The notes beneath the pieces were generated by a model, which saw only the letters and a list, made by a program, of their open reading frames with translations, ran no database searches and had not been told where the DNA came from. DNA of 64,000 nucleotides from a virus, in IMG/VR virus record IMGVR_UViG_3300002026_000021; one strand, written 5' to 3'. Both the position numbers and the translations under genes were made by a program. This document shows positions 2,583-24,775 of this stretch, piece after piece. The first letter of the stretch is position 1, and each line of letters begins with the position of its first letter.

Positions 2583-3431
2583 CTAGGCACTTTGTTTAGC
2601 ATTTGAGGTTATTTCACTCAGATACTCTTTTGCGTTCGTTCCTGACTTATAATACTCACCTAACTTAGGGTCAGCAATATGGAAGTCTATAGTTAGTGGT
2701 ATTCCTAATTGCCATTCTTCTTTAATTTCAAATATTTCATATACTTTAAGAATTACTTTAATTAATTCAGGTCTATATAAGTAGAAATCAGCAGAGTCAT
2801 GAGTCATAGACCAAATACGAGACTTTAGTCCTGAACGCCTTGCCCATCTATTAAACTTAACAATAGCTGGCATAATAGTTCCAATAGCTTCTAATGACTG
2901 TATCTCAGAATTAGCACCAATATTAACCATACCAGATATTTCTTTATAATCATCATCAGTACCACTTAACATTAATAATGGTAATCGTCTAATAACTCCA
3001 TGATGAGTACGAGTATATCCACATTCTTTAACAATATTCTTATTTCTTTCTATACGCTCTAATAAACCTGGGTAACTCTTAAAGAAGGAAGTTCTAATAA
3101 AGGTAGCACAAGTTAAATAATCTATTGATTCAAAAGGAATAGGTTTATTACGTTTAGTAAAGCTATCAATAATAGAATCCTTTAATGACTCTAATTTATT
3201 TGTAGTAATAAAACTTTCAGCTTGGTTTAAAGACCACATAGGCTCTAATGAGTTCATCATAAAGGTCCAAGGAGATGCCCCGAATAATAATGAGAAATTA
3301 GCTGATTTAGCAATATTTCTAATATCCTCGAAAGGCATTAGTTTCTTTAACTTCTTGAACTCTTTATCATCTTTTAATGGCCTAGTTATCTTTCTAACTG
3401 TCATTTTTCCCACCAATAATAACTTTATCAA
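2583..3431 (-). CDS. family-A DNA polymerase, C-terminal (fingers/palm) fragment carrying motifs B and C
   Basis: RNIAKSANFSLLFGAS matches PolA motif B (RRxAKxxNFGxxYG); MTHDSADF matches motif C (VHDE). Complements the N-terminal half at 43819-45867. Confidence 0.65.
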   Translation of the reverse strand: MIKLLLVGKMTVRKITRPLKDDKEFKKLKKLMPFEDIRNIAKSANFSLLFGASPWTFMMNSLEPMWSLNQAESFITTNKLESLKDSIIDSFTKRNKPIPFESIDYLTCATFIRTSFFKSYPGLLERIERNKNIVKECGYTRTHHGVIRRLPLLMLSGTDDDYKEISGMVNIGANSEIQSLEAIGTIMPAIVKFNRWARRSGLKSRIWSMTHDSADFYLYRPELIKVILKVYEIFEIKEEWQLGIPLTIDFHIADPKLGEYYKSGTNAKEYLSEITSNAKQSA

Positions 3432-3626
3432 AAAATCCAGAATCCCTAATATAATTATAACTTACTGCTGGTATCATAAACCAAGATACTAAGAATGAGA
3501 AAATAAATGTAGAAATAATATCTCCTAATGTCATTTCTACTAATGAAAAATAATCAAATAGTAAAGAGAACATACATCCAAAGAATACACCAGAGAGATA
3601 TATTAAAAACAATATGTCTTGAAACA

Positions 3627-4439
3627 TCATTTATCTAATCCTGTTAGTTCTAAGAATCTTGGTAGTTCATTACACATTTTAATAAAACCTAACTGCCAAT
3701 CTTCAAAAAGTTTATGTGACTTTCTTTGATTATACATAGTCTTTAATGATAAATAATTTGACTTTACTGTCATCCATAGTTCAAACCCTGATGGTAATGA
3801 AGAACGTAATCTCATAAATGCTTCATACTTAGCTTGTTCTAATTCTTTCTTAGTATATTTATCTAAACAATCATTAGAATAAGTAACACCATCATCATTA
3901 AGTTCCATAAACTCTAAGTAATTATAGTATTGAATTAACTCTTTAACAATAGCAATTGAACGAGGGTCTACATACTTATTAAACATCTTATCAAAATTCT
4001 CATCTGAAGCCATTGTAGTTAGTTTATGCATGGTAGATTGAGAAGAAATAATTTGATTAAAATGATATCGTTGGAACTCAGGTGACCAGTATAATGGATA
4101 CTTAACATCAAAGTAAACGTCAATTCCTGATAGAAAGTTATCATGGCCTGACCCAGTTTCCGCTGAACCCAATGATTTAGCTCTACGATTATCTTTATCA
4201 AACTTTTGAGCATTATGCATATCATAACCTTCAGTAGTATTAATGGTTCCTACTGTCATCGGATTTCCAGAAGCTCGAATACTTCTCTCTAATCCAAAAA
4301 CTTCAATATTTGTTATCTCTAACACTTCTGTTTCTCCATATGAATAATTATTTTTCTTAGTCTTTGTATCTCTACACATAGAGTATATACATATTCTTCT
4401 AATTTGGCTATAGGAATTTGTTCTAAAGAATATAAACAT
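3627..4439 (-). CDS. hypothetical protein (270 aa)
   Basis: ORF in track; the SGHDNFLSG / QRYHFNQIISSQSTMH segments were compared with the ThyX motif but do not match convincingly. Confidence 0.5.
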   Translation of the reverse strand: MFIFFRTNSYSQIRRICIYSMCRDTKTKKNNYSYGETEVLEITNIEVFGLERSIRASGNPMTVGTINTTEGYDMHNAQKFDKDNRRAKSLGSAETGSGHDNFLSGIDVYFDVKYPLYWSPEFQRYHFNQIISSQSTMHKLTTMASDENFDKMFNKYVDPRSIAIVKELIQYYNYLEFMELNDDGVTYSNDCLDKYTKKELEQAKYEAFMRLRSSLPSGFELWMTVKSNYLSLKTMYNQRKSHKLFEDWQLGFIKMCNELPRFLELTGLDK

Positions 4440-4469
4440 TCTTCAATTACTTTATCAATATCCTTAGTA

Positions 4470-5024
4470 TCAGTCATTTCTATTCCTTAAATACTCTTCT
4501 AATTCTTCTTTAGAATATCTATCTAACTCAGGATATGTCTTAATATTTCTAATAAAAGGTATTGATTCTAATTTTTTGAAATATTTAAAATCATCGTCGT
4601 TTATTGGAATTTTTCCTTCTATCCAAAAATAAGTATTAATCCCATCCCCTTCGGAATGATAATGAGTAACTTTTAGATTGAACTCTTTAGTTTCCTCGTT
4701 TCTAATTCTTAAATTAACTTCTGATGCCCATTGAGGAACTATTGCTATAAAATCATAACCTGCTATTGGTGGTTGTTTTGTTAATCCATACCAACCGTGC
4801 CTAGCAGTAATCTTTAATTCACGAAAATCAAATCCAATAGGGAGTTCTCCATTTTTAGTAAACCCTATAATTCTATTACCAACTCTCTTATAAGTTCCTG
4901 AATGATAAGTAATAGGACCACTTTCAAACTGCATTATTTTCCTCCTTAATAAAGTAAGTAATAAAAATACCATGCTTATTCTTAACTGTTTCTGACTTAG
5001 AGTATATACTTCCATTTGACTCAT
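4470..5024 (-). CDS. hypothetical protein (184 aa)
   Basis: ORF in track; same-strand tiling. Confidence 0.5.
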   Translation of the reverse strand: MSQMEVYTLSQKQLRISMVFLLLTLLRRKIMQFESGPITYHSGTYKRVGNRIIGFTKNGELPIGFDFRELKITARHGWYGLTKQPPIAGYDFIAIVPQWASEVNLRIRNEETKEFNLKVTHYHSEGDGINTYFWIEGKIPINDDDFKYFKKLESIPFIRNIKTYPELDRYSKEELEEYLRNRND

Positions 5025-5153
5025 AATCTAATTCTTTACTAATAACACTATGTAAAGTACAGGGTATAATCTGAGTTATAACAACTAAAGGATGTGCTAA
5101 TTGCCATTTCTCGAATTCTTTAGAACTATTAAAAGTCTGATACTTTATTATTA

Positions 5154-5534
5154 TCATAATAATTCTCCTTTATCAGTATTTTGCTTAACAGCTTTAGCTA
5201 ACCAAACTTCTTCCTTATCCTTAACGCCGTAATCACCTTCTACACTTATATCAGAGGAATAATTATTAGCTTTTAAATAATTCTTTAGTTCTAATTCTGA
5301 CTCAAAAAACTTAGTTATTTCTTCTTCATCTTTCTCACAGAGTACACAATTACAGTCATGTTCAATAACCATATAAACTTTAATACCCTTAGATGATATA
5401 AAAGCATAATTATTATTACTAAGAATATCAGCATAACCTCCATTCTTTTTATTATAATGAAAATAAGCTAATATAGGTTCAGCAATCCAATTAATATTCT
5501 TATCAGTAATTTCTATTAGATATTTATCTTGCAT
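5154..5534 (-). CDS. hypothetical protein (126 aa)
   Basis: ORF in track. Confidence 0.5.
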   Translation of the reverse strand: MQDKYLIEITDKNINWIAEPILAYFHYNKKNGGYADILSNNNYAFISSKGIKVYMVIEHDCNCVLCEKDEEEITKFFESELELKNYLKANNYSSDISVEGDYGVKDKEEVWLAKAVKQNTDKGELL

Positions 5535-6415
5535 TATACCCCCCTTATTTTTTCACCAGAACTTAAATCAAATAATGATAAGAATCGAGTCATAAAATCC
5601 CTTCGCTCTATATTAATATATTCATTAGCAGATTCTAAGGTTGTATGGTATGATGGATAATCCTCATGACTAAAAGTATCACACATTACTGCCATATACT
5701 TAAAACCATCATTAACACCACTATTAAAATACTCTTGAGTTTCCTGATTATAGTCTTTAATAGTAGAAGTATTAATAGCTTTTGTTTCTAATACTTTTTT
5801 ATCAAGTAAATCTTTAAGAATTTTAGTCTTATCAATGTAATCCCAATTATCAGGTTTTATACTCATTGCGAACTCTACTTCTGGATATGACCATAATTGC
5901 CATGAATGTAATTCTATATTAACATTAAGTCTCTTACCATTAGGAATATCCCCATTCATATTTAATTTATCCCATTTATTATAAGTATTATCTTTATAAT
6001 GAATATGCCCATGTAATTGCCAAGAATTATAATGAGATTTATTCCAACATAGCATAGGATAATGACATAGAGTAATTGCTTGTTTATTTACTTCCATATC
6101 CTTTATCATTGATACAGACTTTAATGCTGAATGTATATATCCATTAGGAACTTTATCATGGTTCCCTAATACCCAATGGAAGTTAACACGCTTGGATTTA
6201 AACTTATTAAAGAAAATATCTAAATCTTCTTTCTTAGAATTCCATCTTAAATCACCTACATAGAATAAATTATCTCCTGGCTTTAATACTTCAAAAGCAT
6301 TATCAATAATCTTTTCTTCTAGTTCTTTATGAGTAACATATCCTTTACGAGCTTCAAATCGTAATGACCTTTCATGATCTAAATGCCAGTCTGAAGTAAA
6401 ATATGCGTCATTCAT
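5534..6415 (-). CDS. calcineurin-like metallophosphoesterase
   Basis: SDWHLDH, YVGDLRWN, GNHDK and HGHIH match phosphoesterase motifs I-V. Confidence 0.7.
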   Translation of the reverse strand: MNDAYFTSDWHLDHERSLRFEARKGYVTHKELEEKIIDNAFEVLKPGDNLFYVGDLRWNSKKEDLDIFFNKFKSKRVNFHWVLGNHDKVPNGYIHSALKSVSMIKDMEVNKQAITLCHYPMLCWNKSHYNSWQLHGHIHYKDNTYNKWDKLNMNGDIPNGKRLNVNIELHSWQLWSYPEVEFAMSIKPDNWDYIDKTKILKDLLDKKVLETKAINTSTIKDYNQETQEYFNSGVNDGFKYMAVMCDTFSHEDYPSYHTTLESANEYINIERRDFMTRFLSLFDLSSGEKIRGV

Positions 6416-9028: not shown

Positions 9029-9405
9029 TCTTCCTCCTCATCTAAATAATCTTCCTCAAATTCTTCATAATCGCCAGAACTCCATCTGTCATGATAATCA
9101 ACTTCAAAAGTATAAATCATATCCCCTGGCTCTAATGAATTAATTTCTTCTAATGTTAATGCTTCACCATTACCCTCATTTACTACTTTCTTTACTGCAT
9201 AAAATTCACAGTCTTGAAACTCTTTTCCTTTGTATTTAGTTTTAAACTTATCATCAAGTTCAAAGGCTTCTACACCTTCAGTAAGACTTGAACCAATAAA
9301 CCAAACTGATTTGTAATCATCAACATCTTCAAAACTAATTTCCTTACCTATTAATACGAATGAAGATGATGATGAATTAGAAACGAATCCTAATCGTGTT
9401 TTCAT
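9025..9405 (-). CDS. paralog 3 of the MKTRLGFVSNSSSSSF family (126 aa; highly acidic C-terminus)
   Basis: Conserved N-terminus; C-terminal DYEEFEEDYLDEEEE. Confidence 0.6.
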   Translation of the reverse strand: MKTRLGFVSNSSSSSFVLIGKEISFEDVDDYKSVWFIGSSLTEGVEAFELDDKFKTKYKGKEFQDCEFYAVKKVVNEGNGEALTLEEINSLEPGDMIYTFEVDYHDRWSSGDYEEFEEDYLDEEEE

Positions 9406-9408
9406 TAA

Positions 9409-9771
9409 TTACCCCCAATGATTTCTTTGTATTGCAATATTCTCTAAAGCTTCTTGAATCCCCCAAGGAATTGAATTATCATCAGTTGAATCAATAACTA
9501 ATACTTCTTTATAGTCTTTTTCATCTAGGTATATTTTAGTAGTATTACAAGAATAATTAAAATCTCTAACCCTATCAAAATAACTCTTAGAATTAATTGT
9601 ATAAATAGTACAAATTTCATCAACAGTTTCATTAAAAGTATCATCAATAATTTTAATTGATTCTATTTGTTTTTCTATAAATTCTCTTATTTGACCTTCA
9701 GTAAACTTCTTTGGGTCAAGAATAAAAGAACTAGAAGAACTGTTGCTAACAAATCCTAATCGTGTTTTCAT
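9409..9771 (-). CDS. paralog 4 of the MKTRLGFVSNSSSSSF family (120 aa)
   Basis: Conserved N-terminus. Confidence 0.6.
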   Translation of the reverse strand: MKTRLGFVSNSSSSSFILDPKKFTEGQIREFIEKQIESIKIIDDTFNETVDEICTIYTINSKSYFDRVRDFNYSCNTTKIYLDEKDYKEVLVIDSTDDNSIPWGIQEALENIAIQRNHWG

Positions 9772-10364
9772 TAGTGTGTCCTATATGCCGAAACAGTTAG
9801 GTTCATATCAGCGAATCCTCTTACACCTAAATCAGCAGAAGATACATATGAAGTAGTATTAGCTGATTTAAAATTCATTGATTGAGCTTCACCAAATACA
9901 TCAAAATTAGCACCTAAAAATACAAATTCCCAATTATACTTATCTTGCTGGTGTTTAATCTTTTCCCCTAATTCTTTTTTATCATTATAAGGGTAATTAG
10001 ATTGATTCTCTTGACCATCAGTCATAACTACAATCATTACTTTTTCTGGTCTATTAAACTCTTCTTCTTCAGATAATGCTAATCCAACTTCATCAATAGT
10101 TTTCCACATTGCTTCTAATAAAGCAGTACCACCAGAAGGACGATAATCTTTCTTAGTAAATTTATCAATAATTTGGATTGATATCCTATTCATTTGTTTT
10201 ATAATATTAGTATCAAATTGAATTAATGTAAACTTAGCGTCTCCTGGTAATTTCTTCTGTTCTTCAATAAAGGTGTTTAATCCACCGATGACATCTGATT
10301 CAGTTCCACCCATTGAACCAGACTTATCTAAAATTAATACTATTTCTGTTAATCCTTTCTTCAT
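9771..10364 (-). CDS. von Willebrand factor A (vWA) domain protein
   Basis: LILDKSGSMGG is the MIDAS DxSxS motif; a later Thr/Asp follows. Confidence 0.6.
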   Translation of the reverse strand: MKKGLTEIVLILDKSGSMGGTESDVIGGLNTFIEEQKKLPGDAKFTLIQFDTNIIKQMNRISIQIIDKFTKKDYRPSGGTALLEAMWKTIDEVGLALSEEEEFNRPEKVMIVVMTDGQENQSNYPYNDKKELGEKIKHQQDKYNWEFVFLGANFDVFGEAQSMNFKSANTTSYVSSADLGVRGFADMNLTVSAYRTH

Positions 10365-10419
10365 TGTAATCTCCTTATACTAAAGTATATACTAAATACT
10401 TCATTTTGGCTATTAAAAT

Positions 10420-11091
10420 CTAATCCCAATGTAACATTTTTTCTAGTTCTTGAATTTCAAACTGTGATAAATTAGTTTCCATTAACTTTTGAGCTATATT
10501 AGTTTTATAACTCTCATCTCTATCTTCCCAATCCTGCAATATCTTTAATACCTCTAATGTAGCTATATGATACCCTTTCTGTAGATATTTAGATACACGA
10601 TATACTTGGGCAATAGGGCAATGAATATTCTTAATAACTAATTTTAAATGTTGTTCATCCTCAATAGAATCATCATCAGCAATAGCTTCTAAAACACCAT
10701 TAATAATACTAAAGATACCAAAACGAGCTATAGTAAAATCAAAGCTTTCCATGATTTCCTCTATAGAACCCTTAGCTACAATCCTTCCAGATACTTTAGG
10801 CTTAATTAATTGTAATGGTAACTTACCTTTAGCACAGAACCTATAAGTCTCTGCTACTTCTGATTCAAATTGTAATGAATATCCATTAGAACCCATACGA
10901 TTCTTAATGTTAGTAAATGATTCATCTGAAGGACAATAGATATCAATGTCCTCAGATACAATAGGTCGGTCCCGTGTTGAACAAGAATATCTAGCGAATC
11001 CCCCACAGATAAATCCATCATTTTTAATAATGTCTTTAAATAGATATTCTAGTACTTCTTTATTTCTAACGATATCAGTAGTAACAAACAT
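10420..11091 (-). CDS. hypothetical protein; possible minimal nucleotidyltransferase fold
   Basis: CGGFARYS...SEDIDIY resembles the GS-x(n)-DxD polymerase-beta-like NTase motif. Confidence 0.35.
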   Translation of the reverse strand: MFVTTDIVRNKEVLEYLFKDIIKNDGFICGGFARYSCSTRDRPIVSEDIDIYCPSDESFTNIKNRMGSNGYSLQFESEVAETYRFCAKGKLPLQLIKPKVSGRIVAKGSIEEIMESFDFTIARFGIFSIINGVLEAIADDDSIEDEQHLKLVIKNIHCPIAQVYRVSKYLQKGYHIATLEVLKILQDWEDRDESYKTNIAQKLMETNLSQFEIQELEKMLHWD

Positions 11092-11704: not shown

Positions 11705-12328
11705 TTAATCCTCCTTATCTTCTTCAGCCGATTCTAAATTTTCTAAGTATTTAATATACCCTAAACCCATAATAGATAAATCTTCAAAGGAAACAGAATC
11801 ATAGAGCTTGCAAGGGTAATAAATATCTTCAGATGACTTATACTTAGTAAAATCCTTAGAATAGAATCGTTCTGATTCTGCTAAAGGTTGAGTATTACAA
11901 CCTTTATATACTTCTAGCCTCTTTGTATCTAAATCAATAACATAGGCGTATTCACAGAATAATGAATCAGAAATAAAAGTAGTGTTATCTTCAAGTTCTC
12001 GAACGCCTTTATTACAAATTAAATCTAAGATACCAGAGCCAACATCTCTATGGAATTGAGGATAGTTCTCATGAAACTTCTTAGATACTCCCATATCAAC
12101 CATATCCGAATTAGGATTAGCTCCACACTCTATCCATTTATTTTTAATATCTTCTTCATTAGTAAATTTACAATCTCTAATAGCTAGAACAAACTTAGGT
12201 AAATCCATAGAATTAATAAACTTAACAATACTCTTACCCTGACCTGAGAAGTATCCATCCCATTGTCCATACTGAGCTACCTTAATCTGCTTGTCTAACA
12301 CTACCATAGTTAAATGTCTAGTTCCCAT
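11705..12328 (-). CDS. hypothetical protein (207 aa)
   Basis: ORF in track. Confidence 0.5.
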   Translation of the reverse strand: MGTRHLTMVVLDKQIKVAQYGQWDGYFSGQGKSIVKFINSMDLPKFVLAIRDCKFTNEEDIKNKWIECGANPNSDMVDMGVSKKFHENYPQFHRDVGSGILDLICNKGVRELEDNTTFISDSLFCEYAYVIDLDTKRLEVYKGCNTQPLAESERFYSKDFTKYKSSEDIYYPCKLYDSVSFEDLSIMGLGYIKYLENLESAEEDKED

Positions 12329-12773
12329 TTTGTTGCTCCTTATTCTTTCTAATCTCTCTAGCTCTCTTTAGATTCTCGGCCATTTTAAGTCTGTTTTCTT
12401 CAGACATTGGTTTTCTTACTTTCCTAACTTTCTTAACACTAGTCTCTTTGGTTTCTACATTAAAATATTTTGATAAGCAATTTTTAATCCACTCTACATT
12501 TTGCCAGAATCGTTTATCTACTATTTCTTTTTCTATTTTAGGTGAAAGTATGTAATTATGGTTAGAACGTAATACTGCTCTAATCTTAGGAATAAAGTCA
12601 AAAGCATCTAATTCCTGATTATCTATAACTAAGGTATATTTACCATTAACTAAACCTTTGGTAGGTTTAGTCTTCTTAGTTATAGAGCTAAGTAAAGGAA
12701 TTCCTAATGATAGTTTTTCTATCTTAGCTTTTTCTCTACCTAATTTTATTGCTAACTTATGTTGCTCAGTCAT
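12318..12773 (-). CDS. hypothetical basic protein (151 aa)
   Basis: ORF in track; Lys-rich (KKVRKVRK); consensus promoter immediately upstream at 12790-12818. Confidence 0.5.
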   Translation of the reverse strand: MTEQHKLAIKLGREKAKIEKLSLGIPLLSSITKKTKPTKGLVNGKYTLVIDNQELDAFDFIPKIRAVLRSNHNYILSPKIEKEIVDKRFWQNVEWIKNCLSKYFNVETKETSVKKVRKVRKPMSEENRLKMAENLKRAREIRKNKEQQNGN

Positions 12774-12789: not shown

Positions 12790-12818
12790 AGTATATATCA
12801 TTATTCAAGTTTTGTCAA
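12790..12818 (-). promoter_or_regulatory. sigma70-type promoter TTGACA-N17-TATACT
   Basis: Minus strand: TTGACAAAACTTGAATAATGATATATACT; lies just beyond the distal end of the CRISPR array. Confidence 0.55.
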
Positions 12819-12831
12819 TAGAAAATATAAT

Positions 12832-13332
12832 AATTCCACGATTAACGTGATATACCTATGATGCTGAAATTTCCTATTGATAGGAGCCTTTATTTCAATC
12901 CACGATTTAACGTGAGGATGTATCTCATTATTGAAATAGGAAAAAAATGAGTAATGGTTGTCTCAATCCACGTTAAATCGTGAGGTAGCAACCTAAAGAA
13001 GTTCTTAAAACCTATTTTGATGTGCTTATTCCAATCCACGATTAACGTGATGTAGCAACAAGGATGTGTATTTTGACATTACTTCATTTTATGGGTTCCA
13101 ATCCACGACAAAGCGTGAGGTAGCAACTGCAACCCGTCATTTGAGTTAGCATGTTTATACAAGTCTCAATCCACGCTTGCGCGTGAGGATACATCCGTAT
13201 GTATACTGATTACGTGACAACCTATCTGTAGTCTCAATCCACGACAAAGCGTGAGGATACATCATAAACGGAACGATTTTGATTGTCGGTGATGAGCTGT
13301 CTCAATCCACGACAAAGCGTGAGGATACATCT
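12832..13332 (-). CRISPR. CRISPR array: 7 well-formed repeats plus 1 degenerate terminal repeat, 7 spacers (~36 bp each), period 68 bp; transcribed on the minus strand from the leader at 13333-13513
   Basis: Repeats begin at 12893, 12961, 13029, 13096, 13164, 13232 and 13300. Consensus on the plus strand is TCTCAATCCACGACAAAGCGTGAGGATACATC; the last two copies are identical. Repeats degenerate towards 12832, the leader-distal (oldest) end. The stems CCACG/CGTG(A)GG are conserved while the loop varies (compensatory pattern). Confidence 0.92.
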
Positions 13333-13513
13333 CTATCACTCTTAATTCCTTTATCTACTTAACTTTATTATTCTACTTCCGCGAACCTCATTTACAATAG
13401 ACAATATATAGTATGTCAAAGACCTTAATACTATTATAAATATTTATACTATAACATTTTATTAAACTCCGAGAACCTATTAACTTTTTCTGTTAGCTAT
13501 AGGTTCGCGCTAC
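13333..13513 (-). promoter_or_regulatory. CRISPR leader (AT-rich), with a candidate promoter (TTGACA-N17-TGTAAA, minus strand, near 13395-13425) and a 10-bp inverted repeat (GCGAACCT / AGGTTCGC) at both leader ends
   Basis: About 80% AT; TTGACA read on the minus strand from plus 'tgtcaa' at ~13420; inverted repeats at 13378-13390 and 13500-13513. Confidence 0.45.
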
Positions 13514-13978
13514 TTAGTAAATAAAAAATAACCCAAATCCTAATCGTTTAGACCGACCATACCCTGATACTAACATCTCAGAAAACTTCTTATTATCTTT
13601 TACTTTAATAGTACCAGAAATAAAGTAAGGGTAAAAATAATGATTCTTTTCTCTAATATAAATTGGTTCTTCTTTAGTGATATCACAATTTAGTACTTCA
13701 AAGATATCATTACTATTTAACTTTTCATATACACTATCATGGTCAATAGGTGTCTCAAAATTATCACTACGTTTAACTCCATTAAAACGTAAACAAAAAT
13801 CTAATACATCATTATCATTATACTTAGTTTCTACTTCAATACCTTTAGTACCTTGCTTCTCTGATAATACATAACAAATATTATCAATATCTATCCATAA
13901 TGCTTTTGAATCAAATTTAGCTACTTCCTGATGAGTTAAGTAATACGTTTCTTTCATAGGAACTGAATGTAAATACAT
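13514..13978 (-). CDS. cas6: miniature Cas6/Cas5c-like RAMP endoribonuclease (candidate crRNA-processing enzyme)
   Basis: C-terminal GYGRSKRLGFG matches the RAMP G-rich loop consensus GxGxxxxxGxG; the gene is immediately adjacent to the leader/array on the same strand; only 154 aa. Confidence 0.6.
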   Translation of the reverse strand: MYLHSVPMKETYYLTHQEVAKFDSKALWIDIDNICYVLSEKQGTKGIEVETKYNDNDVLDFCLRFNGVKRSDNFETPIDHDSVYEKLNSNDIFEVLNCDITKEEPIYIREKNHYFYPYFISGTIKVKDNKKFSEMLVSGYGRSKRLGFGLFFIY

Positions 13979-13979
13979 A

Positions 13980-14981
13980 TTATTTCTTCTCCTTTTTCTT
14001 CAATTCTCTTTCCTCTTTTCTAGCTAATATCTGTTCAAATTTATATTTGTTCAGATTAGTCGGTTCAAATGGATAGATATTAGGCTTGAAGTCTTCATAA
14101 ATATCTTCAATACTCTTAATATACACCATACCACCTTCTAATATATTAGCAAATCCTGGCCCATTTGTCAAGTCCTCATAGAACTTATCATCAATAGTTA
14201 ATTCAATATTACCATTAGTATCAATAACAGTAAAAGGGAATAATCCAACTTGACGAGCAACTAAAGGATTTCCATCCTGAGTCATTCCATTCATAGCCTT
14301 TATTATACCATTTTCATTAGGGCCTAAAATTAAATCTCTAAGTGGTTCTTTATATTTAAGTTTCCTTACAGTAATATTATTATCCTGTTCTGTTACTGCC
14401 CGAATATCACTATTACTTTTGTTCTTATTAAGAATAGTAAATATCTTAGCAATAGGAACTGACCTATAATTATCTCCAACATACTTTTTAGCTAATTCTG
14501 TAAATGCTTTTAATTCAGTTTCATTGAAATAATTTAAGAATCTTTCCCAAGTTAATATACCACAATTTACTTGATAAGGAGTATCACCATAAATAATAAT
14601 ATTACTTGATGGGAGCCATTGATTATTCCCTTTTAAATACTTCCTAAATTGAATAGTCATTTTAGTAGGGATAGTTGTTAATGTTATTCTAGCTGTTTTA
14701 GCAGTAGTCAATGCATTTATATCAAACTCTCTTTTAGTCCTATAGATTGCTTTCCTTGAGATAGTTTGCTTATTAGTTAATACACTTAATACGTTTGCCA
14801 TAGTATGAATATCTATATAGGGAGCGTACTCCTTAGTATTAGGAACAAAGGTCTTAAACTCCCTATTATATTTAGAATAAGAATCTTTGGGAATCCTAGA
14901 ACCCTTCATTACTCCTATAAACCCACACTCTTCAAAATGGATAACCTCTGCATTAGTAAATCTTAAAGTAAGTTTTCTCAT
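13980..14981 (-). CDS. cas5: Cas5-like (possibly Cas5/Cas8-substituting) Cascade subunit, 333 aa
   Basis: Position between the Cas7-like gene and the Cas6-like gene; N-terminus MRKLTLRFTNAEV resembles Cas5 N-termini. The assignment rests on context only. Confidence 0.4.
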   Translation of the reverse strand: MRKLTLRFTNAEVIHFEECGFIGVMKGSRIPKDSYSKYNREFKTFVPNTKEYAPYIDIHTMANVLSVLTNKQTISRKAIYRTKREFDINALTTAKTARITLTTIPTKMTIQFRKYLKGNNQWLPSSNIIIYGDTPYQVNCGILTWERFLNYFNETELKAFTELAKKYVGDNYRSVPIAKIFTILNKNKSNSDIRAVTEQDNNITVRKLKYKEPLRDLILGPNENGIIKAMNGMTQDGNPLVARQVGLFPFTVIDTNGNIELTIDDKFYEDLTNGPGFANILEGGMVYIKSIEDIYEDFKPNIYPFEPTNLNKYKFEQILARKEERELKKKEKK

Positions 14982-15037: not shown

Positions 15038-16087
15038 CTATTCAGTTAAACCACGAAGCTTAACATAGAAAGGAAAAGGTTCAATAAAGATTTCCTCAAT
15101 ATCTGTAGTTGTCTCAAGTTTAATAAAGTCATTACTACTAAAAAGATTACTATTCTTAGTAGGATTAGTAATACCCTGATATTCTAATGATGAGGTTTTA
15201 GCATATCCATTATTTCTAGTAATCATAACAGAAGCAATATTATTGAACAAATATTTAATAAGATAATTAATCTGTTCTATAGTTAATAGGATACCAAGCT
15301 GTTCAGCTTTTTCAACTTGATTTGTTCTATAGAAATATCCTGCCTGAGTATTTTTATCAATATCTAACCCAGTATTCTCTTTGAATGAAGCAATAAATAC
15401 ATCAATATTATCAGGAAGTAAACTCATACTTCCAAACCTATCATCCATATCAATAAACATTAAATTCTGAAGATTGATAGCACCTTGGTATTCATAAGTA
15501 ATTTCCCCAACAGTTTCAATAGTAAATATTGCATTATTATCTTTATCCCCATTATTGGAATTAAATAAGAATGATGGAAAAGCATTGTTTGATTGAATTG
15601 CATGAGAAACAGATACTACATTTCCTCTTTTGAGTAAATCATTCTCTTTAAGAATTTCTGTATCTTCAACATTTTCAACTTCTTCAACATTATCAGTATT
15701 TTTTTCCTTCTTATTACTTTTCTCCTTCTTACTATTAGTTTCCATATATCCTCGGAGTAACATCCCTGGATGCCCAATTAGTTTAGCTAAATATTCATTC
15801 TTACCTCTATAGGAACGAATATAATTCGGCATATCCTTTTCAAAGATGCTATGACGAAGGCAATTACTAGAGATAATTATCTTTCCTTTAAGTTCATCTC
15901 CAATCTTTTCCTTAACATGCTTTGCTACTTTAATATTAGTTACTTTCTTATGCTTAACATAAGGAACTTTGAATCCATAAGACTTAGTATAAAAATCTTC
16001 CTCCTCAAAAGGAATTCCTCCATTGTAATTAACAATACCATTACCGTTCATAGTACCCTTAAAGAAAATTGTCTTAACTCCATTCAT
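15038..16087 (-). CDS. cas7: Cas7-like Cascade backbone subunit, 349 aa
   Basis: N-terminal Gly/Asn-rich segment FFKGTMNGNGIVNYNGG resembles the Cas7 (Csd2/Csh2-type) N-terminal motif; position directly after cas3; followed by an intrinsic-terminator-like hairpin. Confidence 0.45.
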   Translation of the reverse strand: MNGVKTIFFKGTMNGNGIVNYNGGIPFEEEDFYTKSYGFKVPYVKHKKVTNIKVAKHVKEKIGDELKGKIIISSNCLRHSIFEKDMPNYIRSYRGKNEYLAKLIGHPGMLLRGYMETNSKKEKSNKKEKNTDNVEEVENVEDTEILKENDLLKRGNVVSVSHAIQSNNAFPSFLFNSNNGDKDNNAIFTIETVGEITYEYQGAINLQNLMFIDMDDRFGSMSLLPDNIDVFIASFKENTGLDIDKNTQAGYFYRTNQVEKAEQLGILLTIEQINYLIKYLFNNIASVMITRNNGYAKTSSLEYQGITNPTKNSNLFSSNDFIKLETTTDIEEIFIEPFPFYVKLRGLTE

Positions 16088-16088: not shown

Positions 16089-18317
16089 TTATATCTCCTT
16101 AAAATTTAAACCAATTCCAATTTTAGAATCAGTTGATGAACAATACTGATGAAGTAAATCCATAAAAGGAAATTCCTCTATTTTAGATTTATCCACCCAT
16201 TCGTCAATATCATTATCTGTTAACTCCTTTCGTTCATTAAACTTCTTATTTAAGAATCTTTCTAATTTAGAACTATCAACTTCTTTAAGAAAGCGTTCTA
16301 ATCTCTTTCTAGTATATGCAACTTTTTTAGTTTTGTCAATAAAGAAATCTCCTGAATTAACATTTAATTTTGTGAACTCATTATTAGTATTATATACATA
16401 ATAATTATAATTATCAGTACTTGACCTAAGTGACTTTCCTTTCCTAGATTCATCAATTTCATACTTCCTAAAGAAAATAGTATTTGAAGTGTCTTCTCCT
16501 TCTTTTTTAATACTATTAAGATACTCAATAATATTACTTTTATTATCAATATTAAAAGCATTATATAAAGAGTAAAAATCATTAATAGTCAATACTCTAT
16601 CAGCAATATTTTCTTTAAAGAATGTATCTATGATAGGTTTAAAGTTCTTATTATATTTGCCCTTCCATAGATATGCTTCAGAGGAACTACTCTTCATTTC
16701 AGGAGATAAAAACTTAATATCTGTAGTAGTATACTCTCCCCAACGTGAAATTCTTCCTAATCGTTGTAATATAGATTCAAAAGAAAATAAAGTAATTTCC
16801 CCTGATGAATAAGAAACATCCATAGCTTTCTCACCAATGAAAGAAGTAATAAAACTCTTATCGACATTATTCATTGTGTTCTTACCAAAGTACTCATAAA
16901 TCTTAGTAAGTATTTTATATTTATCTTCATCAGTATACCTACTATGTAATAACAAATCTAAATTAGAATTAAGATAATTTTGTTGAACTTGTTTAATTGT
17001 ATTAAAGAAATAAACACATCCTGATTTTTTTTCAGGAGTATATAGTTCATCGATATTCTTTAAAGAACAAGCAAACTTAGTTTTATTAAAAGATTTAAAA
17101 TGTTCATCATTAGAGGGTAGTACATCAATATTAGTTTTATTACTAATAAATAAATTATGATGCCAAGAAGGAGTAGCACTTAATAATAATGTATTACACT
17201 TTATTCTACTAGACCTAATTTGCATTATTCTTAAAAATAAGGAATATAGTCTAGGAGAATCAGATAATGAATGATACTCATCAAAGATAATATTTCTATT
17301 AAACATATTAATAGCATACTCTAGCATATGAGATTTATACAAAGAGAAATAGTAATTGTCAATATTAGTAACAATTATATCAGAGCTATAATTATTGCCT
17401 TCATCTGTTGAACTTACTACGGATGAAGAGAGAAATAATTCCACAGATATATTAATATTATTACATTTGATTTCAGTAAGAATATTATTATATACAGAGG
17501 TAGCAGTATTATTATCTGGACAAACCCAAATAGTCTTTTGTTTATACTTATGAATCCAATATAGACCCATTAGTGTTTTTCCATATCCTGTAGGAGCTTT
17601 TATGATTGCTGTTTTATTTTTAATGCTATCTATAATAGGTTTTTGCTCTGATTCAAATCTGTATTTATAGTCTTCGTTAATAGTAATAGAGAAATCTAAA
17701 TCATTACTACTTTCCTCAATATCTTTTGAAACAAGTCTATCAGCAGTAAATAAAATACTTCTAATAATTAGAGTATCATTAAAATCACCACATTTATAAT
17801 TAAATATGGTTGGGGTAGAGTAATCATTAGTAGAGTCTTTCCTTCTAAAATTAATATACTTCCAGTCTCTTTTTGAGAGAAGCTCTAAATATACTTTTTC
17901 TAGTATCTCTAAGTCCTCACTAGAAATAAAACTCAAAATTTCATTAGCTGAAGAAAAATAATATTTTTCCTTTAATCTTAGAGATACCGTATTATATACA
18001 TATGTACGGTGTGAGAAGTATAAAGAATCTAAAATAGCTCCTTCATCATCAGCTTGTATTTTTTTAATTATAAATGCCCAAGCTACTTCATTATGATGAG
18101 GATATAAGTAATTACTTTTTAATTCTCCTTTTAATTGCTTCTGAAATACAGGAAGAACTTTACCAATATCGTGAAAAAGAGTTACAAATAATACTCGTTC
18201 TCTAGTCTCTTCATCAGAATTAAAATAATTAGAAAAATAATTATCAGCTTTGTTCATAACGGCAAGAGAATGACTTAAAATTGTAGATTCAGAATTCGCT
18301 GGTTGATTTAAATACAT
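16089..18317 (-). CDS. cas3: Cas3 HD-nuclease/SF2-helicase (742 aa, no Cas2 fusion)
   Basis: N-terminal HD domain (LSHSLAV ... VTLFHDIGK); helicase motif I APTGYGKT; motif II FDEYH (DExH); motif III LLLSATPS. Consensus promoter directly upstream at 18355-18383. Confidence 0.85.
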   Translation of the reverse strand: MYLNQPANSESTILSHSLAVMNKADNYFSNYFNSDEETRERVLFVTLFHDIGKVLPVFQKQLKGELKSNYLYPHHNEVAWAFIIKKIQADDEGAILDSLYFSHRTYVYNTVSLRLKEKYYFSSANEILSFISSEDLEILEKVYLELLSKRDWKYINFRRKDSTNDYSTPTIFNYKCGDFNDTLIIRSILFTADRLVSKDIEESSNDLDFSITINEDYKYRFESEQKPIIDSIKNKTAIIKAPTGYGKTLMGLYWIHKYKQKTIWVCPDNNTATSVYNNILTEIKCNNINISVELFLSSSVVSSTDEGNNYSSDIIVTNIDNYYFSLYKSHMLEYAINMFNRNIIFDEYHSLSDSPRLYSLFLRIMQIRSSRIKCNTLLLSATPSWHHNLFISNKTNIDVLPSNDEHFKSFNKTKFACSLKNIDELYTPEKKSGCVYFFNTIKQVQQNYLNSNLDLLLHSRYTDEDKYKILTKIYEYFGKNTMNNVDKSFITSFIGEKAMDVSYSSGEITLFSFESILQRLGRISRWGEYTTTDIKFLSPEMKSSSSEAYLWKGKYNKNFKPIIDTFFKENIADRVLTINDFYSLYNAFNIDNKSNIIEYLNSIKKEGEDTSNTIFFRKYEIDESRKGKSLRSSTDNYNYYVYNTNNEFTKLNVNSGDFFIDKTKKVAYTRKRLERFLKEVDSSKLERFLNKKFNERKELTDNDIDEWVDKSKIEEFPFMDLLHQYCSSTDSKIGIGLNFKEI

Positions 18318-18555: not shown

Positions 18556-18996
18556 TCATTTGCCTTCCTCCTTGTTAACAACATCAATACTAAGGATATC
18601 ACTTCTACTCAGTTTCAATATACCAAACCCTCTATTACTACCTTGTCCATACTCCCAATTATAATATTCAGATTCACGAGTTCTTAACCAATGTGTTACT
18701 CTTCTAAAAGAATATGGAACAGCTACCATAGAATTAGAATAACTATACTCTTTACCTGATTTTAATGTAATCTTAATATGCCAAAGCTTTTTAGGTACTT
18801 CTTTTAATACTTCCATAGATGGCGCTTCAGGATAAAAGTAGTTTACTTTATTCTTAGGGATATCTATATCCTTATCCTTATTACCTTCTTTAAGTTTTTC
18901 TATTTCATAATTACGTTGATTAAGAATAAAAATAAGAAAGATTATTATTATACCAAAAGCCATAGACAGAATAAAAGGAGCAATAAGATATGTCAT
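18556..18996 (-). CDS. membrane-anchored hypothetical protein (146 aa)
   Basis: N-terminal TM helix LIAPFILSMAFGIIIIFLIFIL. Confidence 0.5.
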   Translation of the reverse strand: MTYLIAPFILSMAFGIIIIFLIFILNQRNYEIEKLKEGNKDKDIDIPKNKVNYFYPEAPSMEVLKEVPKKLWHIKITLKSGKEYSYSNSMVAVPYSFRRVTHWLRTRESEYYNWEYGQGSNRGFGILKLSRSDILSIDVVNKEEGK

Positions 18997-20811: not shown

Positions 20812-20892
20812 TACTAGAGTATATTATATATTTTAATTAATGTCAATAAGATAATAAAAAAAAGCATAGTAAATTAATACTATGCTTTAATA

Positions 20893-20965
20893 TCGGAATG
20901 AGTTGACTCGAACAACCGACTGCCCCGCCCCAAACGGGGAACTCTACCAACTGAGTTACATTCCG
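20893..20965 (-). tRNA. tRNA-Pro (anticodon UGG)
   Basis: Folded by hand: acceptor CGGAATG/CATTCCG, D-arm ACTC-AGTTGGTA-GAGT, anticodon arm CCCCG-TTTGGGG-CGGGG, T-arm GGTTG-TTCGAGT-CAACT. Confidence 0.8.
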
Positions 20966-21159
20966 ATTATTTAATTACAACTAAATTATCTATTAATTCA
21001 TCTGTATCTATTTCTTCGTTCCAGTATTGAATTAATAATTCTTTATTCTTAGCATACTGAAGGAACTTTTTATATGTTTTTCATAGGAAGTTCCATGTGT
21101 TCAGCTTCGGTAAGGATAGAATCTTCATCAAGTTTACGCATTTTAACCTCTTGAGTAAT

Positions 21160-21188
21160 AGTATAGCATATTTAATTAGTATTGTCAA
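21160..21188 (-). promoter_or_regulatory. sigma70-type promoter TTGACA-N17-TATACT
   Basis: Minus strand: TTGACAATACTAATTAAATATGCTATACT. Confidence 0.55.
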
Positions 21189-21294
21189 TAGGTAAAAATA
21201 GAAATAAAATAATAGGAGATGTAGGAGTTGGACCTACTGTGGCAGTTTATAAGACTGCTCCTCAAAACCGTCGAGGACACCTCCAATGTTAACT

Positions 21295-21522
21295 TCAATC
21301 AAATTCTGCTGACTCTAAATTATCTTCCCAACCCTCTCTTTCATCCTCATCCATATCTTCCCAATCACAACCTGTAGGCTCATCAAAATCTTGGTCATCA
21401 GTACTAGGTTCTTTATGAAACTCATTACAGCCACAACCACTACAGGCTAACCAGATTAAATCTGCTTCACTAATAGTACAAGCAAACTCATGAGAACCAC
21501 ATTCATTACAAACCCAGTCCAT
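21295..21522 (-). CDS. Zn-ribbon / acidic protein (75 aa)
   Basis: CNEC ... CSGCGC; acidic C-terminus. Confidence 0.5.
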   Translation of the reverse strand: MDWVCNECGSHEFACTISEADLIWLACSGCGCNEFHKEPSTDDQDFDEPTGCDWEDMDEDEREGWEDNLESAEFD

Positions 21523-21614
21523 AATTATTTAACTCCTAATAAAAACTGACTTAATGAATTATACTACATTAAGTCAGTTTTGTCAATATTGTTACTGATT
21601 ATTATTTGATTCTA

Positions 21615-21690
21615 GTGCTAACTAGAAGGATTTGAACCTTCAACAAGCACGGTCTAAACGTGCGGTGTCTGCATTGCACCATAGTGGCAT
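21615..21690 (-). tRNA. tRNA-like gene (perfect T-arm GAAGG-TTCAAAT-CCTTC and an anticodon-like arm GCACG-TTTAGAC-CGTGC, anticodon UAG); the acceptor and D stems do not fold canonically
   Basis: Consensus promoter at ~21714-21745 lies immediately upstream on the minus strand; I could not close the acceptor stem by hand. Confidence 0.4.
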
Positions 21691-21751
21691 TCACTCTACA
21701 ATAATAGTATATACTAAATAACCAGTATTGTCAATTAAAATCGTAAAAATA

Positions 21752-22144
21752 TTAACCATAAATATCTACAAGAGCTTGTTCACTCATGTAGTTATCACAT
21801 TTCCGTATCTTTGAACCCTCAGTGTAAAATTTTAATTCATCTTTTAAGTATTCAATAAAATGAACAGAAAACTCTGCATCGGAGGATTCTAAAAAATCAT
21901 CATCATAGAACATAAACTCTTCACAATACTCATCAATATTTTCTTCTATCTCTGATAGAGGTTTTTGTAAAATAGTATTTATTTTTGCTATATGATATTC
22001 AAAATACTCCATTACAGACTTAGGTGAGCCAAACCCTCCATCAGAAGTAGCAAAGTGTTTTCCAGATACTATTACATAACCAAAGCTATCTTCTTCATCA
22101 AAATCTTCATATGGACCTAAAACAAACCAAAAGGCATTTTTCAT
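21752..22144 (-). CDS. hypothetical acidic protein (130 aa)
   Basis: ORF in track. Confidence 0.5.
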   Translation of the reverse strand: MKNAFWFVLGPYEDFDEEDSFGYVIVSGKHFATSDGGFGSPKSVMEYFEYHIAKINTILQKPLSEIEENIDEYCEEFMFYDDDFLESSDAEFSVHFIEYLKDELKFYTEGSKIRKCDNYMSEQALVDIYG

Positions 22145-22237
22145 TGGTATCCCCTAATAAAGTTAATCTAAGATTAGTATACTAATAAATTCTTTTCTTG
22201 TCAACTACCTTTTAAGATTATCAACAAGAAAAGAAGC

Positions 22238-23020
22238 TTACTCATAGAAATCTTTAATACCATCATACACATCTTTAATGTAAATCTTTCTAACAATATC
22301 TCTTTTATCAGCACCCCAATCATCATCATAATAATTGTATCTTAAAGACTTTGCTTTATACCATTTGGGCCAAAGATGAGCAGAATTAAATTCTTGATGA
22401 AGCCTTTGGTATTTAGAAACACTTTCATCATCATATACCTTTCTTCTATAAATATAGTTTACTTCTACCTTTTTAGAAAACTTCCATAAAGGTTCTTTAC
22501 AACGATATTCATAGTGTTCTGATAATCTCCAACCAGGAACATCTCTTCTAACCTTATTAAAAAAGGTTTTGAGAGGACAGGGAAGTTTTTCATATTCATT
22601 CTCAGTAAGCTTCTTAAAGCCTAAAGGTGCTTCAACTTTCTTTTCACCTTTTCTAGGCTTTCTTACAAATAATCTTCCTGAATAAGAATAGTTATCAAAG
22701 GTAAAGGAGTTCTTATTAGTACTAGGGTATACTAAAAACTTTCTATCGTAAGAATACTGATGAATAGTAATTAATTCTATTAGTTCTTTAAGTTTAGCCC
22801 CCTCGCTAGTTTTACTAATGTCAGGTCTAACAACTAAATACCGATGATACCCATTAAATATAGGAGGGTTAACATCCACCCATTCATAGTTATCAGTAGA
22901 CATCTTTCTAAAATGACATAAATCTCGTTCTTTTTTAAGAATTAATTTATCTTTATTAAGATATTTTAATCTTAAACCTCTTTTTAAGACTCTTTCTTCT
23001 TTATCCATTTGATTTACCAC
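22238..23020 (-). CDS. hypothetical protein (260 aa)
   Basis: ORF in track. Confidence 0.5.
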   Translation of the reverse strand: MVNQMDKEERVLKRGLRLKYLNKDKLILKKERDLCHFRKMSTDNYEWVDVNPPIFNGYHRYLVVRPDISKTSEGAKLKELIELITIHQYSYDRKFLVYPSTNKNSFTFDNYSYSGRLFVRKPRKGEKKVEAPLGFKKLTENEYEKLPCPLKTFFNKVRRDVPGWRLSEHYEYRCKEPLWKFSKKVEVNYIYRRKVYDDESVSKYQRLHQEFNSAHLWPKWYKAKSLRYNYYDDDWGADKRDIVRKIYIKDVYDGIKDFYE

Positions 23021-23292
23021 CTTACAGCTTAATCATAATGGACCTCCTTAATTAGAAATATAGTGCCGGAACCATGAGTCGCACATGGATATAGGGATTT
23101 TCAGTCCCCCCTTTTACTCTTAAAGTATTCTGGCATATGATTATTTTGAAGTCTGCCTATAGCAGTTTAGCTTTTTACGTTACTTATTACTGGTGCATTA
23201 TCGTCATCAACAGTTAGTAACAACTTCAAAGCCGAATTACGAGGTATCTAGGTACTGCCCCTAGCTCCACGGATTAACAGTCCGTACCCTCA

Positions 23293-23829
23293 CTATGACG
23301 GGCCTATACCTCTTATTTCTTCGTGCAATTCTCTATGACAATTCGCACAAACTAAAATACATTTATCAACTTCCTCTAAACTTCTTTTCAGATTTTTTAT
23401 ATCTCCTGAAGAGATACCAAAATCTTTTTGATTAGAATCTTTATGATGAAATTCTAATGCTGTAACTGATTTTGAATACCCACAAATTTCACATTTCCCA
23501 CCCTTATACTCTACAAGAAACTTTTTTCTTCTTTTTCTAAAATCCTCTATAATTTTAGACTTAGATTTTGCGGGGTCTTTACATAATTTACAAACCCCTG
23601 ATACATTATTGTAACTAATTTCTTTATTACATTTGGAACAAAATCTCTTATCTTTTCTTTTTAAAGAAAGACTTATTTTAGCTTTAACCTCTTCTGTTCT
23701 TTCCCTTTTATTAGCACACGATTGAGAACAAAATCGTGGTATTGGATTCTTTTTTAAAGACCTTTTATCCTTTCTCCAATCTTCTAAAAACTCTTTTTTA
23801 CATTTCTCACAAGTAAACATTGGAACCAC
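23293..23829 (-). CDS. HNH homing endonuclease (Cys-rich, zinc-binding)
   Basis: EFHHKDSNQKD ... LVCANCHRELH is an HNH motif; multiple CxxC pairs; embedded in the tRNA cluster. Confidence 0.7.
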   Translation of the reverse strand: MVPMFTCEKCKKEFLEDWRKDKRSLKKNPIPRFCSQSCANKRERTEEVKAKISLSLKRKDKRFCSKCNKEISYNNVSGVCKLCKDPAKSKSKIIEDFRKRRKKFLVEYKGGKCEICGYSKSVTALEFHHKDSNQKDFGISSGDIKNLKRSLEEVDKCILVCANCHRELHEEIRGIGPS

Positions 23830-23882
23830 CTATATAAGCATATACTTAATTAGTATATCTCATTAAGATAGGTTCAAAAATA

Positions 23883-23970
23883 GGTGACTAATGGGATTCA
23901 AACCCATGATGAAGGCTTTCGCCTTAGTGATTCCACAGACCACTCCAATCGCTCACTCTGGCATAGTCAC
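23883..23970 (-). tRNA. type II (long variable arm) tRNA, isotype uncertain (anticodon loop reads CUGUGGA)
   Basis: Acceptor GTGACTA/TAGTCAC; T-arm ATGGG-TTTGAAT-CCCAT; ~19-nt variable arm. Confidence 0.5.
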
Positions 23971-23971
23971 A

Positions 23972-24044
23972 AGCGGTATATCAGGTTCGAACTGATGACA
24001 ACCAATTTGGAAGACTGGAACTCTACCAACTGAGCTAATACCGC
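23972..24044 (-). tRNA. tRNA-Gly (anticodon UCC)
   Basis: Acceptor GCGGTAT/ATACCGC, D-arm GCTC-AGTTGGTA-GAGT, anticodon arm CCAGT-CTTCCAA-ATTGG, T-arm ATCAG-TTCGAAC-CTGAT. Confidence 0.8.
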
Positions 24045-24053
24045 AAAAAAAAT

Positions 24054-24127
24054 TAGTTCCGGTCAGATTTGAACTGACGATAACCGCATAGAAAGTGCGG
24101 TGGCTTAAACCACTCGCCTACGGAACC
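24054..24127 (-). tRNA. tRNA-Glu (anticodon UUC)
   Basis: Acceptor GGTTCCG/CGGAACT, anticodon arm CCGCA-CTTTCTA-TGCGG, T-arm GTCAG-TTCAAAT-CTGAC. Confidence 0.75.
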
Positions 24128-24223
24128 ATTAAACAATAGCAAGTACTCCCGAAGGGTCTTGCACCCTCACTGTTAGGATTTTGAGTCCTATGCCTCTGCT
24201 TTTGGGCTACGGGAGCGTCCTAG

Positions 24224-24302
24224 CCAAGGTGACAAGATTCGAACTTGCATACTCCAATTACTCGGTTAACGACCGTTTAGAAGACGGTTGAGGTACACCT
24301 TG
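24224..24302 (-). tRNA. tRNA-like gene, isotype undetermined
   Basis: Acceptor CAAGGTG/CACCTTG and T-arm GCAAG-TTCGAAT-CTTGT are clear; the D and anticodon arms were not resolved by hand. Confidence 0.45.
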
Positions 24303-24478
24303 ATACTCTACATCTGGACCGTGTGGGTAGCGACCCCTACGTTAACCTTTTCGGTTAGAGCGGAACCTTCCGTCGGCCCTCAGTTAGTGAATTAAAAAAC
24401 GTAGGACGAGAGCATCTCGGTCCCCTTGCCATCTAGGTCATTTTCTAACTCACTATAACAAGTATATACTAATTATCA

Positions 24479-24772: not shown

Positions 24773-24775
24773 TTT

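Follow-up and report, generated by a model that had tools for sequence, protein, structure and literature searches.

The Cas6e proteins of type I-E CRISPR-Cas systems are represented by CasE of Escherichia coli (199 aa; PDB 4dzd, 4u7u_D) and Cse3 of Thermus thermophilus (211 aa; PDB 2y8w, 3qrp), and their operons hold cse1, cse2, cas7e, cas5e, cas1 and cas2. A smaller effector is found in type I-F2 (I-Fv) of Shewanella putrefaciens CN-32, which consists of Cas6f, Cas7fv, Cas5fv and Cas2-3 and has neither a large nor a small subunit (PMC4937334; PDB 5o6u). Among phages, Cas1, Cas2 and Cas4 are almost always missing from the CRISPR loci of huge phages (Al-Shayeb et al. 2020, PMC7162821); a type I variant carried by such phages lacks Cas6, relies on a Cas5d-like protein and has no Cas6e-like subunit (PMC7162821). 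The I-F1 system of phage ICP1, with Cas8f, Cas5f, Cas6f, Cas1 and Cas2/3, has no Cas6e-like subunit either (PMC10161043). Passages of the 2025 classification update describe an I-F variant intermediate between I-F1 and I-F2, and a Cas6e-type subunit is not mentioned in those passages (PMC12669027). In the literature searched, which lay outside the 2022 survey of virus-encoded CRISPR systems in Cell, a Cas6e-type subunit is nowhere described for an I-F2-like system.

The window, i.e. the whole stretch of 64,000 nt analysed here (IMG/VR virus record IMGVR_UViG_3300002026_000021), is most likely part of the genome of a large phage. Its GC content is ~30% throughout, the cas locus included, and positions 20892-27796 of the minus strand hold 15 clustered tRNA genes, as genomes of large phages typically do (Pro, Phe, His, Gly, Glu, Leu, Arg, Asp, Thr, Trp, Gln, Cys, Tyr, Lys and Ser). 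Ribonucleotide reductase, pieces of DNA polymerase, RNA ligase, DNA methyltransferase and dCMP deaminase are encoded as well, many short ORFs match only PHROG families of unknown function, and no structural genes were identified in the part of the window examined. Two ORFs gave weak hints of an anti-restriction or defence function, namely 55776-56819 (plus strand), with a hit to the S-adenosylmethionine lyase family below the cut-off, and 10420-11091 (minus strand, 223 aa), with a weak Gad2 hit on record.

Four cas genes follow one another on the minus strand of the window, in the order Cas3, Cas7fv-like protein, 333-aa protein and mini-Cas6, and are succeeded by a leader and a CRISPR array (Table 1). 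Neighbouring genes are separated by 1-56 nt without any additional ORF in the gaps, so that no gene for a Cas8 (large) or Cas11 (small) subunit is found there. Judged from these sequence assignments, the module appears to be a rare, probably phage-borne minimal type I system in which an I-F2-like backbone is joined to an I-E-like Cas6.

Table 1. Features of the cas locus and CRISPR array in the window, and Cas6 proteins of the sister loci.
Feature	Position	Strand	Description
Cas3	16089..18317	minus	742 aa; N-terminal HD nuclease, SF2 helicase and Cas3 C-terminal domain
Cas7fv-like backbone subunit	15038..16087	minus	349 aa; matches in NF040577, PADLOC, PDB and PF28157
333-aa protein	13980..14981	minus	gene position held by Cas5fv in I-F2 operons
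mini-cas6e	13514..13978	minus	154-aa two-RRM Cas6e-family protein, ATG start
Leader	13332..13513	minus	182 nt, between cas6 and array; holds conserved boxes
Leader boxes GCGCGAACC and GGTTCTCGG	13510-13502 and 13477-13469	minus	inverted pair
Leader box GGTCTTTGACA	13424-13414	minus	-35-like
Leader box GGTTCGCGG	13387-13379	minus	47 nt before repeat 1
CRISPR array	12828..13331	minus	8 repeats of ~33 nt, period 67-68, 7 spacers of 35 nt
L003, Cas6 P0005			149 aa; four genes; contig ends before any array could be seen
L005, Cas6 P0007			167 aa; module and array
L168/L169, Cas6 P0008			162 aa; module and array
L171, Cas6 P0021			177 aa; module and array
L208, Cas6 P0017			165 aa; module and array

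The preliminary description had proposed the last gene of this operon as a candidate for a miniature crRNA-processing RAMP, either Cas6 or Cas5c, with a C-terminal G-rich loop and an array-proximal position. The ORF is real according to both the ORF list and its translation (MYLHSVPMKETYYLTHQEV...SGYGRSKRLGFGLFFIY); the loop GYGRSKRLGFG is present at residues 138-148, six residues short of the C-terminus and with Lys144 inside it, and the first repeat (13299-13331) lies 182 nt past the stop codon. Only 1 nt separates the ATG from the stop codon of the preceding gene, and a Shine-Dalgarno sequence AAGGAG sits 10 nt 5' of the ATG, so the gene is an operon member with its own ribosome-binding site. 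As for identity, the RAMP claim is borne out in the form of a Cas6e relative (hereafter mini-Cas6e). Pfam family PF08798 (CRISPR_assoc = Cse3/CasE) matches with 30.8 bits (gathering cut-off 25, E 4.4e-7), the match covering the C-terminal 57 residues only, and four PADLOC Cas6e/Cas6 models match with E values from 5e-8 to 8e-6, accompanied by a weaker match to a type IV Cas6 model. A profile of the family alignment (A1) aligned end to end with E. coli CasE (positions 1-160 versus 1-196, E 5e-16), and hhalign placed residues 1-154 on CasE 1-197 with a probability of 98.8% (E 1.3e-16). On these profile scores, the match to Cas6e is far beyond chance. The NCBIfam Cas6e equivalog TIGR01907 gave 25.5 bits (E 1.4e-5), below its cut-off of 45.2, and identity to Cas6e of type I-E is only ~20%; mini-Cas6e is a homologue of Cas6e and not an equivalog-level member.

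The hhalign superposition also places the presumed catalytic residues. Tyr13 and His16, both in helix 1, align with Tyr17 and His20 of CasE, and Lys144 falls on the lysine of the CasE loop GIGPAKSMGCG. The H20A substitution in CasE abolishes endonuclease activity (PMC4499155). Of the two histidines put forward as catalytic candidates in the preliminary description, His16 thus stands, whereas the supposed His5 is actually His4, which is not conserved in the family. In alignment A1, His16 is kept in 12 of 13 full-length members and Lys144 is nearly invariant. The roles of the catalytic Tyr and Lys partners are reportedly known from work on T. thermophilus Cse3.

The AlphaFold2 model of mini-Cas6e, built from an alignment of 14 sequences, has a mean pLDDT of 95.2 and a pTM of 0.87, with no segment below 50, and consists of two beta-alpha-beta domains, i.e. 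two tandem ferredoxin-like/RRM domains with the G-rich loop ahead of the last strand. The ferredoxin/RRM fold, whose absence would have spoken against the RAMP assignment, was therefore found in the predicted structure. The best 30 Foldseek matches in the PDB are all Cas6e/CasE/Cse3 chains (the best E. coli CasE chains with TM-scores, normalised to the query, of 0.84-0.89); no Cas6f chain is among the matches listed, and the sequence and fold matches are all Cas6e. A search of the BFVD viral structures returned nothing at E <= 0.001. Compared with CasE, mini-Cas6e lacks ~45 residues (23%), which were lost in about eight loop deletions along the chain; the largest of these in the hhalign alignment removes ~12 residues of the basic hairpin around CasE ~97-110. 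In full-size Cas6e this hairpin may contribute to RNA binding. Since both termini and both domains align with CasE, mini-Cas6e is not a truncated Cas6e. PADLOC Cas6e profiles already span 174-192 positions and some family members of ~165-177 aa fit the 174-position model over its full length, so the 154-aa protein represents the short end of a continuum rather than a jump. If active, it may rank among the smallest crRNA-processing nucleases.

Close relatives are scarce. BLASTN and TBLASTN searches against 50,697 GenBank phage records gave no match, a word-index search of 5.8 billion proteins with mini-Cas6e returned only itself, and neither IMG/VR nor the GTDB representative genomes yielded a relative in a related-locus search that used the close-family alignment. 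An exhaustive phmmer search of 1.84 billion cluster representatives yielded 18 hits, 13 of them Cas6-like: nine of 149-177 aa, three of 195-196 aa and one 65-aa fragment. Conserved in alignment A1 are an N-terminal M-Y-(L/I/V)... strand, a Y-x-x-H-Q-x-V helix and the C-terminal G-x-G-R-x-K-x-x-G-F-G loop.

The contexts of these proteins split cleanly by size. All members of 149-177 aa on contigs long enough to tell lie in the same four-gene module, which is seen in six independent metagenomic loci (the window and the five sister loci of Table 1) in the order helicase/Cas3, Cas7fv-like protein, a protein of 315-364 aa, and mini-Cas6; L168 and L208 each have one additional or split ORF call between Cas7 and Cas6. 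On the other side of the split, two members of ~195 aa were looked up: P0015 belongs to a canonical I-E operon (Cas3, Cse1, Cse2, Cas7e, Cas5e, Cas6e, Cas1, Cas2), and P0020 has a canonical I-E context on a shorter contig. In L005 the Cas3 gene is split (2969-5633) into a 269-aa HD-like protein and a 617-aa helicase.

The module in the window resembles I-F2 in gene content and order, both having a nuclease-helicase, a Cas7fv-type backbone protein, a protein of ~330 aa, Cas6 and the array, with no genes for Cas8 and Cas11 and with homologous Cas7 proteins. It differs from I-F2 in that its Cas6 is Cas6e-like instead of Cas6f, and its Cas3 is not fused to Cas2 but begins directly with the HD domain (residues 15-197); in addition, no cas1 is present among the ORFs scanned, and the locus lies on a probable phage. 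Repeats of I-F arrays measure 28 nt and their spacers 32 nt, compared with 33 and 35 nt in the window. From type I-E the module is set apart by the partners of mini-Cas6e, which are the Cas7fv-like and 333-aa proteins rather than Cse1, Cse2, Cas7e and Cas5e, and by the lack of cas1 and cas2 after mini-cas6e. More generally, models of Cas1, Cas2, Cas4, Cse1 and Cse2 matched none of the ORFs scanned, and the corresponding genes are absent from the precomputed Pfam records of the source within +/-10 kb of the locus. A compact cas locus with no adaptation genes among the ORFs scanned, on a tRNA-rich contig of probable phage origin, fits the pattern described for huge phages (PMC7162821).

Among the partner proteins, Cas3 scores just above the cut-off of TIGR01596 cas3_HD (44.3 versus 43.45 bits), also matches TIGR01587 as well as the Pfam families PF22590, DEAD and ResIII, and has Cas3fv as its best PADLOC match (5.7e-41). 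A type IV assignment was rejected because an HD nuclease domain and Cas3 signatures mark the helicase, which is not DinG. The Cas7fv-like protein matches NF040577 (Cas7fv) with E 1.8e-20 and 73.5 bits, which is below the equivalog cut-off of 200, and further matches are the PADLOC Cas7fv model (2.6e-18) and the Cas7fv chain of the I-Fv structure (PDB 5o6u_C, E 1.6e-10), with PF28157 on record. The 333-aa protein has no match in Pfam, NCBIfam, PADLOC or the PDB, neither to a Cas5/Cas5fv model nor to a solved chain, so that, despite its position, it shows no detectable similarity to Cas5fv or to anything in the databases searched. A word-index protein search with it returned only itself, and an AlphaFold2 model from two sequences reached a pLDDT of 33. 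It forms an orphan family whose only relatives are the positional counterparts of 315-364 aa in the sister loci; it aligns over the full length with those of L003 (35% identity) and L005 (20%). By analogy of gene position, it may be the 5'-handle/PAM subunit, perhaps a novel one. Directly 5' of cas3, in the same orientation, lies a 146-aa ORF (18556-18996, minus strand) with a hydrophobic N-terminal segment and no family match.

The two leader-proximal repeats of the array are identical and the distal repeats are degenerate, which indicates transcription of the array on the minus strand. As RNA the repeat reads GAUGUAUCC-UCACG-CUUUGU-CGUGG-AUUGAGAC. All eight repeats keep the (U)CACG-loop-CGUG(G) stem, while the loop occurs in five versions (CUUUGU, GCAA with an extra C-G pair, UUAAU, AUUUAA and UUAAAU); since the stem is kept in every copy while the loop varies, the hairpin is conserved as a structure. 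The hairpin gives way to an 8-nt tail that reads AUUGAGAC, or a close variant of it, in repeats 1-7 and is degenerate in repeat 8 (AAUUAUUA). The stem is weak, with 4-5 bp and -4.3 to -8.8 kcal/mol, not better than shuffled sequences, and much weaker than the 6-7 G-C pairs of type I-E. No Rfam family matches the repeats. Spacers S1-S3 have no match in IMG/VR, the 33 seed matches of S1 in GTDB genomes each contain at least 8 mismatches in 35 nt, a level expected by chance, and neither the window nor the fetched loci hold a match to any of the seven spacers. The degenerate distal repeats and the lack of a protospacer for the spacers searched mean that the system is only putatively active at present. 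The last degenerate repeat (UCACGUUAAUCGUGG then AAUUAUUAUA; 12790-12850, minus strand) scores as a terminator-like hairpin, and directly past it, before the gene at 12318-12773, is a near-consensus promoter TTGACA-17-TATACT (11/12).

Arrays are likewise found 3' of mini-cas6 in L005, L006, L168/169, L170, L171 and L208. Their repeats of 29-33 nt each form a hairpin followed by a tail of 7-8 nt, as in the E. coli I-E repeat, and the L006 repeat carries the E. coli stem CCCCGC/GCGGGG. L168 has two repeat versions with compensatory stem changes (UCUCAUCC/GGGUGAGA versus UCGCAUUC/GAGUGCGA), a pattern that would be expected from stem recognition by a Cas6e-type enzyme with cleavage at the 3' base of the stem. 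Within single arrays (window 12828-13331, L005 8677-9975, L168 6514-7082) the repeats differ in their loops and keep the stem pairing and the tail of 8 nt. Such heterogeneity is unlike arrays grown by Cas1-Cas2 duplication of one repeat, and it resembles that noted for adaptation-less type VII arrays (PMC12669027). The window repeats (e.g. 13299-13331) share TCACG...CGTGGATTGA(G/A)A(C/T) with type I-C repeats (GTCGCxCCCTTCACGGGxGCGTGGATTGAAAY). No type I-C genes are found at the window locus despite this likeness, and a pattern search with two repeats recovered about 150 canonical type I-C arrays, none of them with a mini-Cas6. Possible reasons for the likeness are chance, shared ancestry and compatibility with the I-C adaptation module of a host.

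The leaders compared were those of the window (13332-13513, minus strand), L003 (8448-8558), L005 (8502-8686), L006 (757-950), L168 (6284-6513) and L170 (609-776). The inverted pair GCGCGAACC - ~24 nt - GGTTCGCG stands right after the cas6 stop codon in the window, L003, L005, L006 and L170, and with wider spacing in L168. A third box, GGTTCGC, ends exactly 47 nt before the first repeat in the window, L005, L006, L168 and L170. A -35-like GGT(T)CTTTGACA element is present in the leaders of the window, L003, L168 and L171, and in the window, L005 and L006 the sequence AATTAAG precedes repeat 1 by ~12-18 nt. This architecture is kept across loci whose Cas6 proteins share only 26-47% identity. 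The conserved boxes could represent an operator, an integration signal for Cas1-Cas2 acting in trans, or an RNA structure; their fixed distance of 47 nt, together with the I-C-like repeat ends of the window, would fit the extension of arrays in trans by Cas1-Cas2 of the host.

Taken as a whole, the gene probably encodes a size-minimised endoribonuclease of the Cas6e family, which would mature the crRNA and cap its 3' end as a subunit of a minimal type I effector carried by a phage. The homology, the fold, the alignment of the catalytic residues, the anatomy of operon and array and the conservation of the module in several loci are observed, and cleavage, cut site, assembly of the complex, the role of the 333-aa protein and the targets are inferred from them. 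In the proposed mechanism, minus-strand transcription of the array would start in the leader or continue from the cas operon by read-through, and each repeat would fold into the short (U)CACG-loop-CGUG(G) hairpin. Mini-Cas6e would bind this hairpin via its C-terminal RRM and the basic G-rich loop (GRSKRLGFG), the predicted substrate of binding and cleavage being a transcript carrying GAUGUAUCCUCACGCUUUGUCGUGGAUUGAGAC, and would cut the stem at its 3' base, through acid-base catalysis that requires no metal and involves His16 with Tyr13 and Lys144. The resulting crRNA of ~68 nt would comprise the 8-nt 5' handle AUUGAGAC, a 35-nt spacer and a 25-nt 3' hairpin handle. Mini-Cas6e would remain on the 3' hairpin, capping a minimal Cascade in which about six Cas7fv-like subunits would coat the spacer and the 333-aa protein would take the 5' handle in a Cas5fv-like role, and Cas3 would be recruited to degrade the matched DNA.

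A Cas6 that only binds, capping the 3' hairpin of the crRNA and nucleating the complex while host RNases or a host Cas6 or Cas5c do the processing, would agree with the very short repeat stem and with the loss from mini-Cas6e of loops that adjoin the RNA path in CasE; moreover, E. coli Cascade works without catalysis by Cas6e when given processed crRNA (PMC4499155). It is nevertheless unlikely, since the window protein and most members of the family retain the Tyr-x-x-His pair and the lysine of the G-rich loop, for whose conservation there would be no reason without catalysis. That the gene is a truncated Cas6e pseudogene beside a dying array in a phage is highly improbable. The degenerate distal repeats would suit such decay, as would the lack of adaptation genes in the ORFs scanned and of targets for the spacers searched; however, the reading frame is intact, with a Shine-Dalgarno sequence and translational coupling, the predicted model is compact and confident, and the protein shrank by scattered deletions of loops, both termini still aligning with CasE. 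Six loci carry proteins of this size, at 26-47% identity, in the same intact operon, which implies long-term purifying selection. A truncated pseudogene was rejected on the intact frame, the end-to-end alignment with CasE and the six recurring loci.

Two further readings concern the resemblance to type I-C. The 3' half of the window repeat shares TCACG...CGTGGATTGA(G/A)AC with canonical I-C repeats, and I-C arrays have repeat and spacer lengths similar to the 33 and 35 nt of the window, as would be expected of a Cas5c/Cas5d-type processing RAMP in an I-C-like system. The Cas5c alternative offered in the preliminary description is hardly conceivable for the protein itself, which has neither a PF09704 match nor a Cas5-type RAMP fold; no Cas5 chain is among the Foldseek PDB matches listed, and the identity was rejected with the top 30 all being Cas6e/CasE/Cse3. 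The phage-like contig and the resemblance of the repeat tail to I-C repeats might also point to counter-defence, with the phage Cas6 mainly sequestering or mis-processing host pre-crRNAs and the cas operon being secondary. Tails of the form ATTGAAA(C/G), which the window tail resembles, are common to several CRISPR types. Such a decoy is very unlikely in view of the constant association of mini-cas6 with its own Cas7, Cas3 and array, and of stems that co-vary with each locus's own array and not with one host type. These considerations leave the size-minimised Cas6e as the preferred reading. A broader proposal, that the proteins of 149-177 aa represent the minimal functional Cas6 core and mark an undescribed, mostly phage-borne type I variant (an I-F2-type backbone with a Cas7fv-like protein and no Cas8/Cas11, an I-E-type Cas6 and I-E-like hairpin repeats), is put forward as a speculative and rather doubtful one.

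If active, the family of 149-177 aa would show how small a Cas6 can become without losing either RRM or the catalytic Tyr/His/Lys, and would offer a smaller alternative to the Cas6 enzymes used as RNA-processing tools. The latter are larger (Csy4/Cas6f 187 aa, CasE 199 aa). The rare combination of an I-E-type Cas6 with an I-F2-type minimal Cascade bears on the relations between the I-E and I-F lineages, and the locus bears on how large phages keep CRISPR arrays without adaptation genes of their own. The locus is moderately interesting, for a possible smallest Cas6 and a hybrid effector design, and not categorically new. Among the sister loci, L208 carries an IS200/IS605-type pair (9321-10912), consisting of a Y1 transposase and a TnpB/Cas12f-like protein, directly after its CRISPR array.
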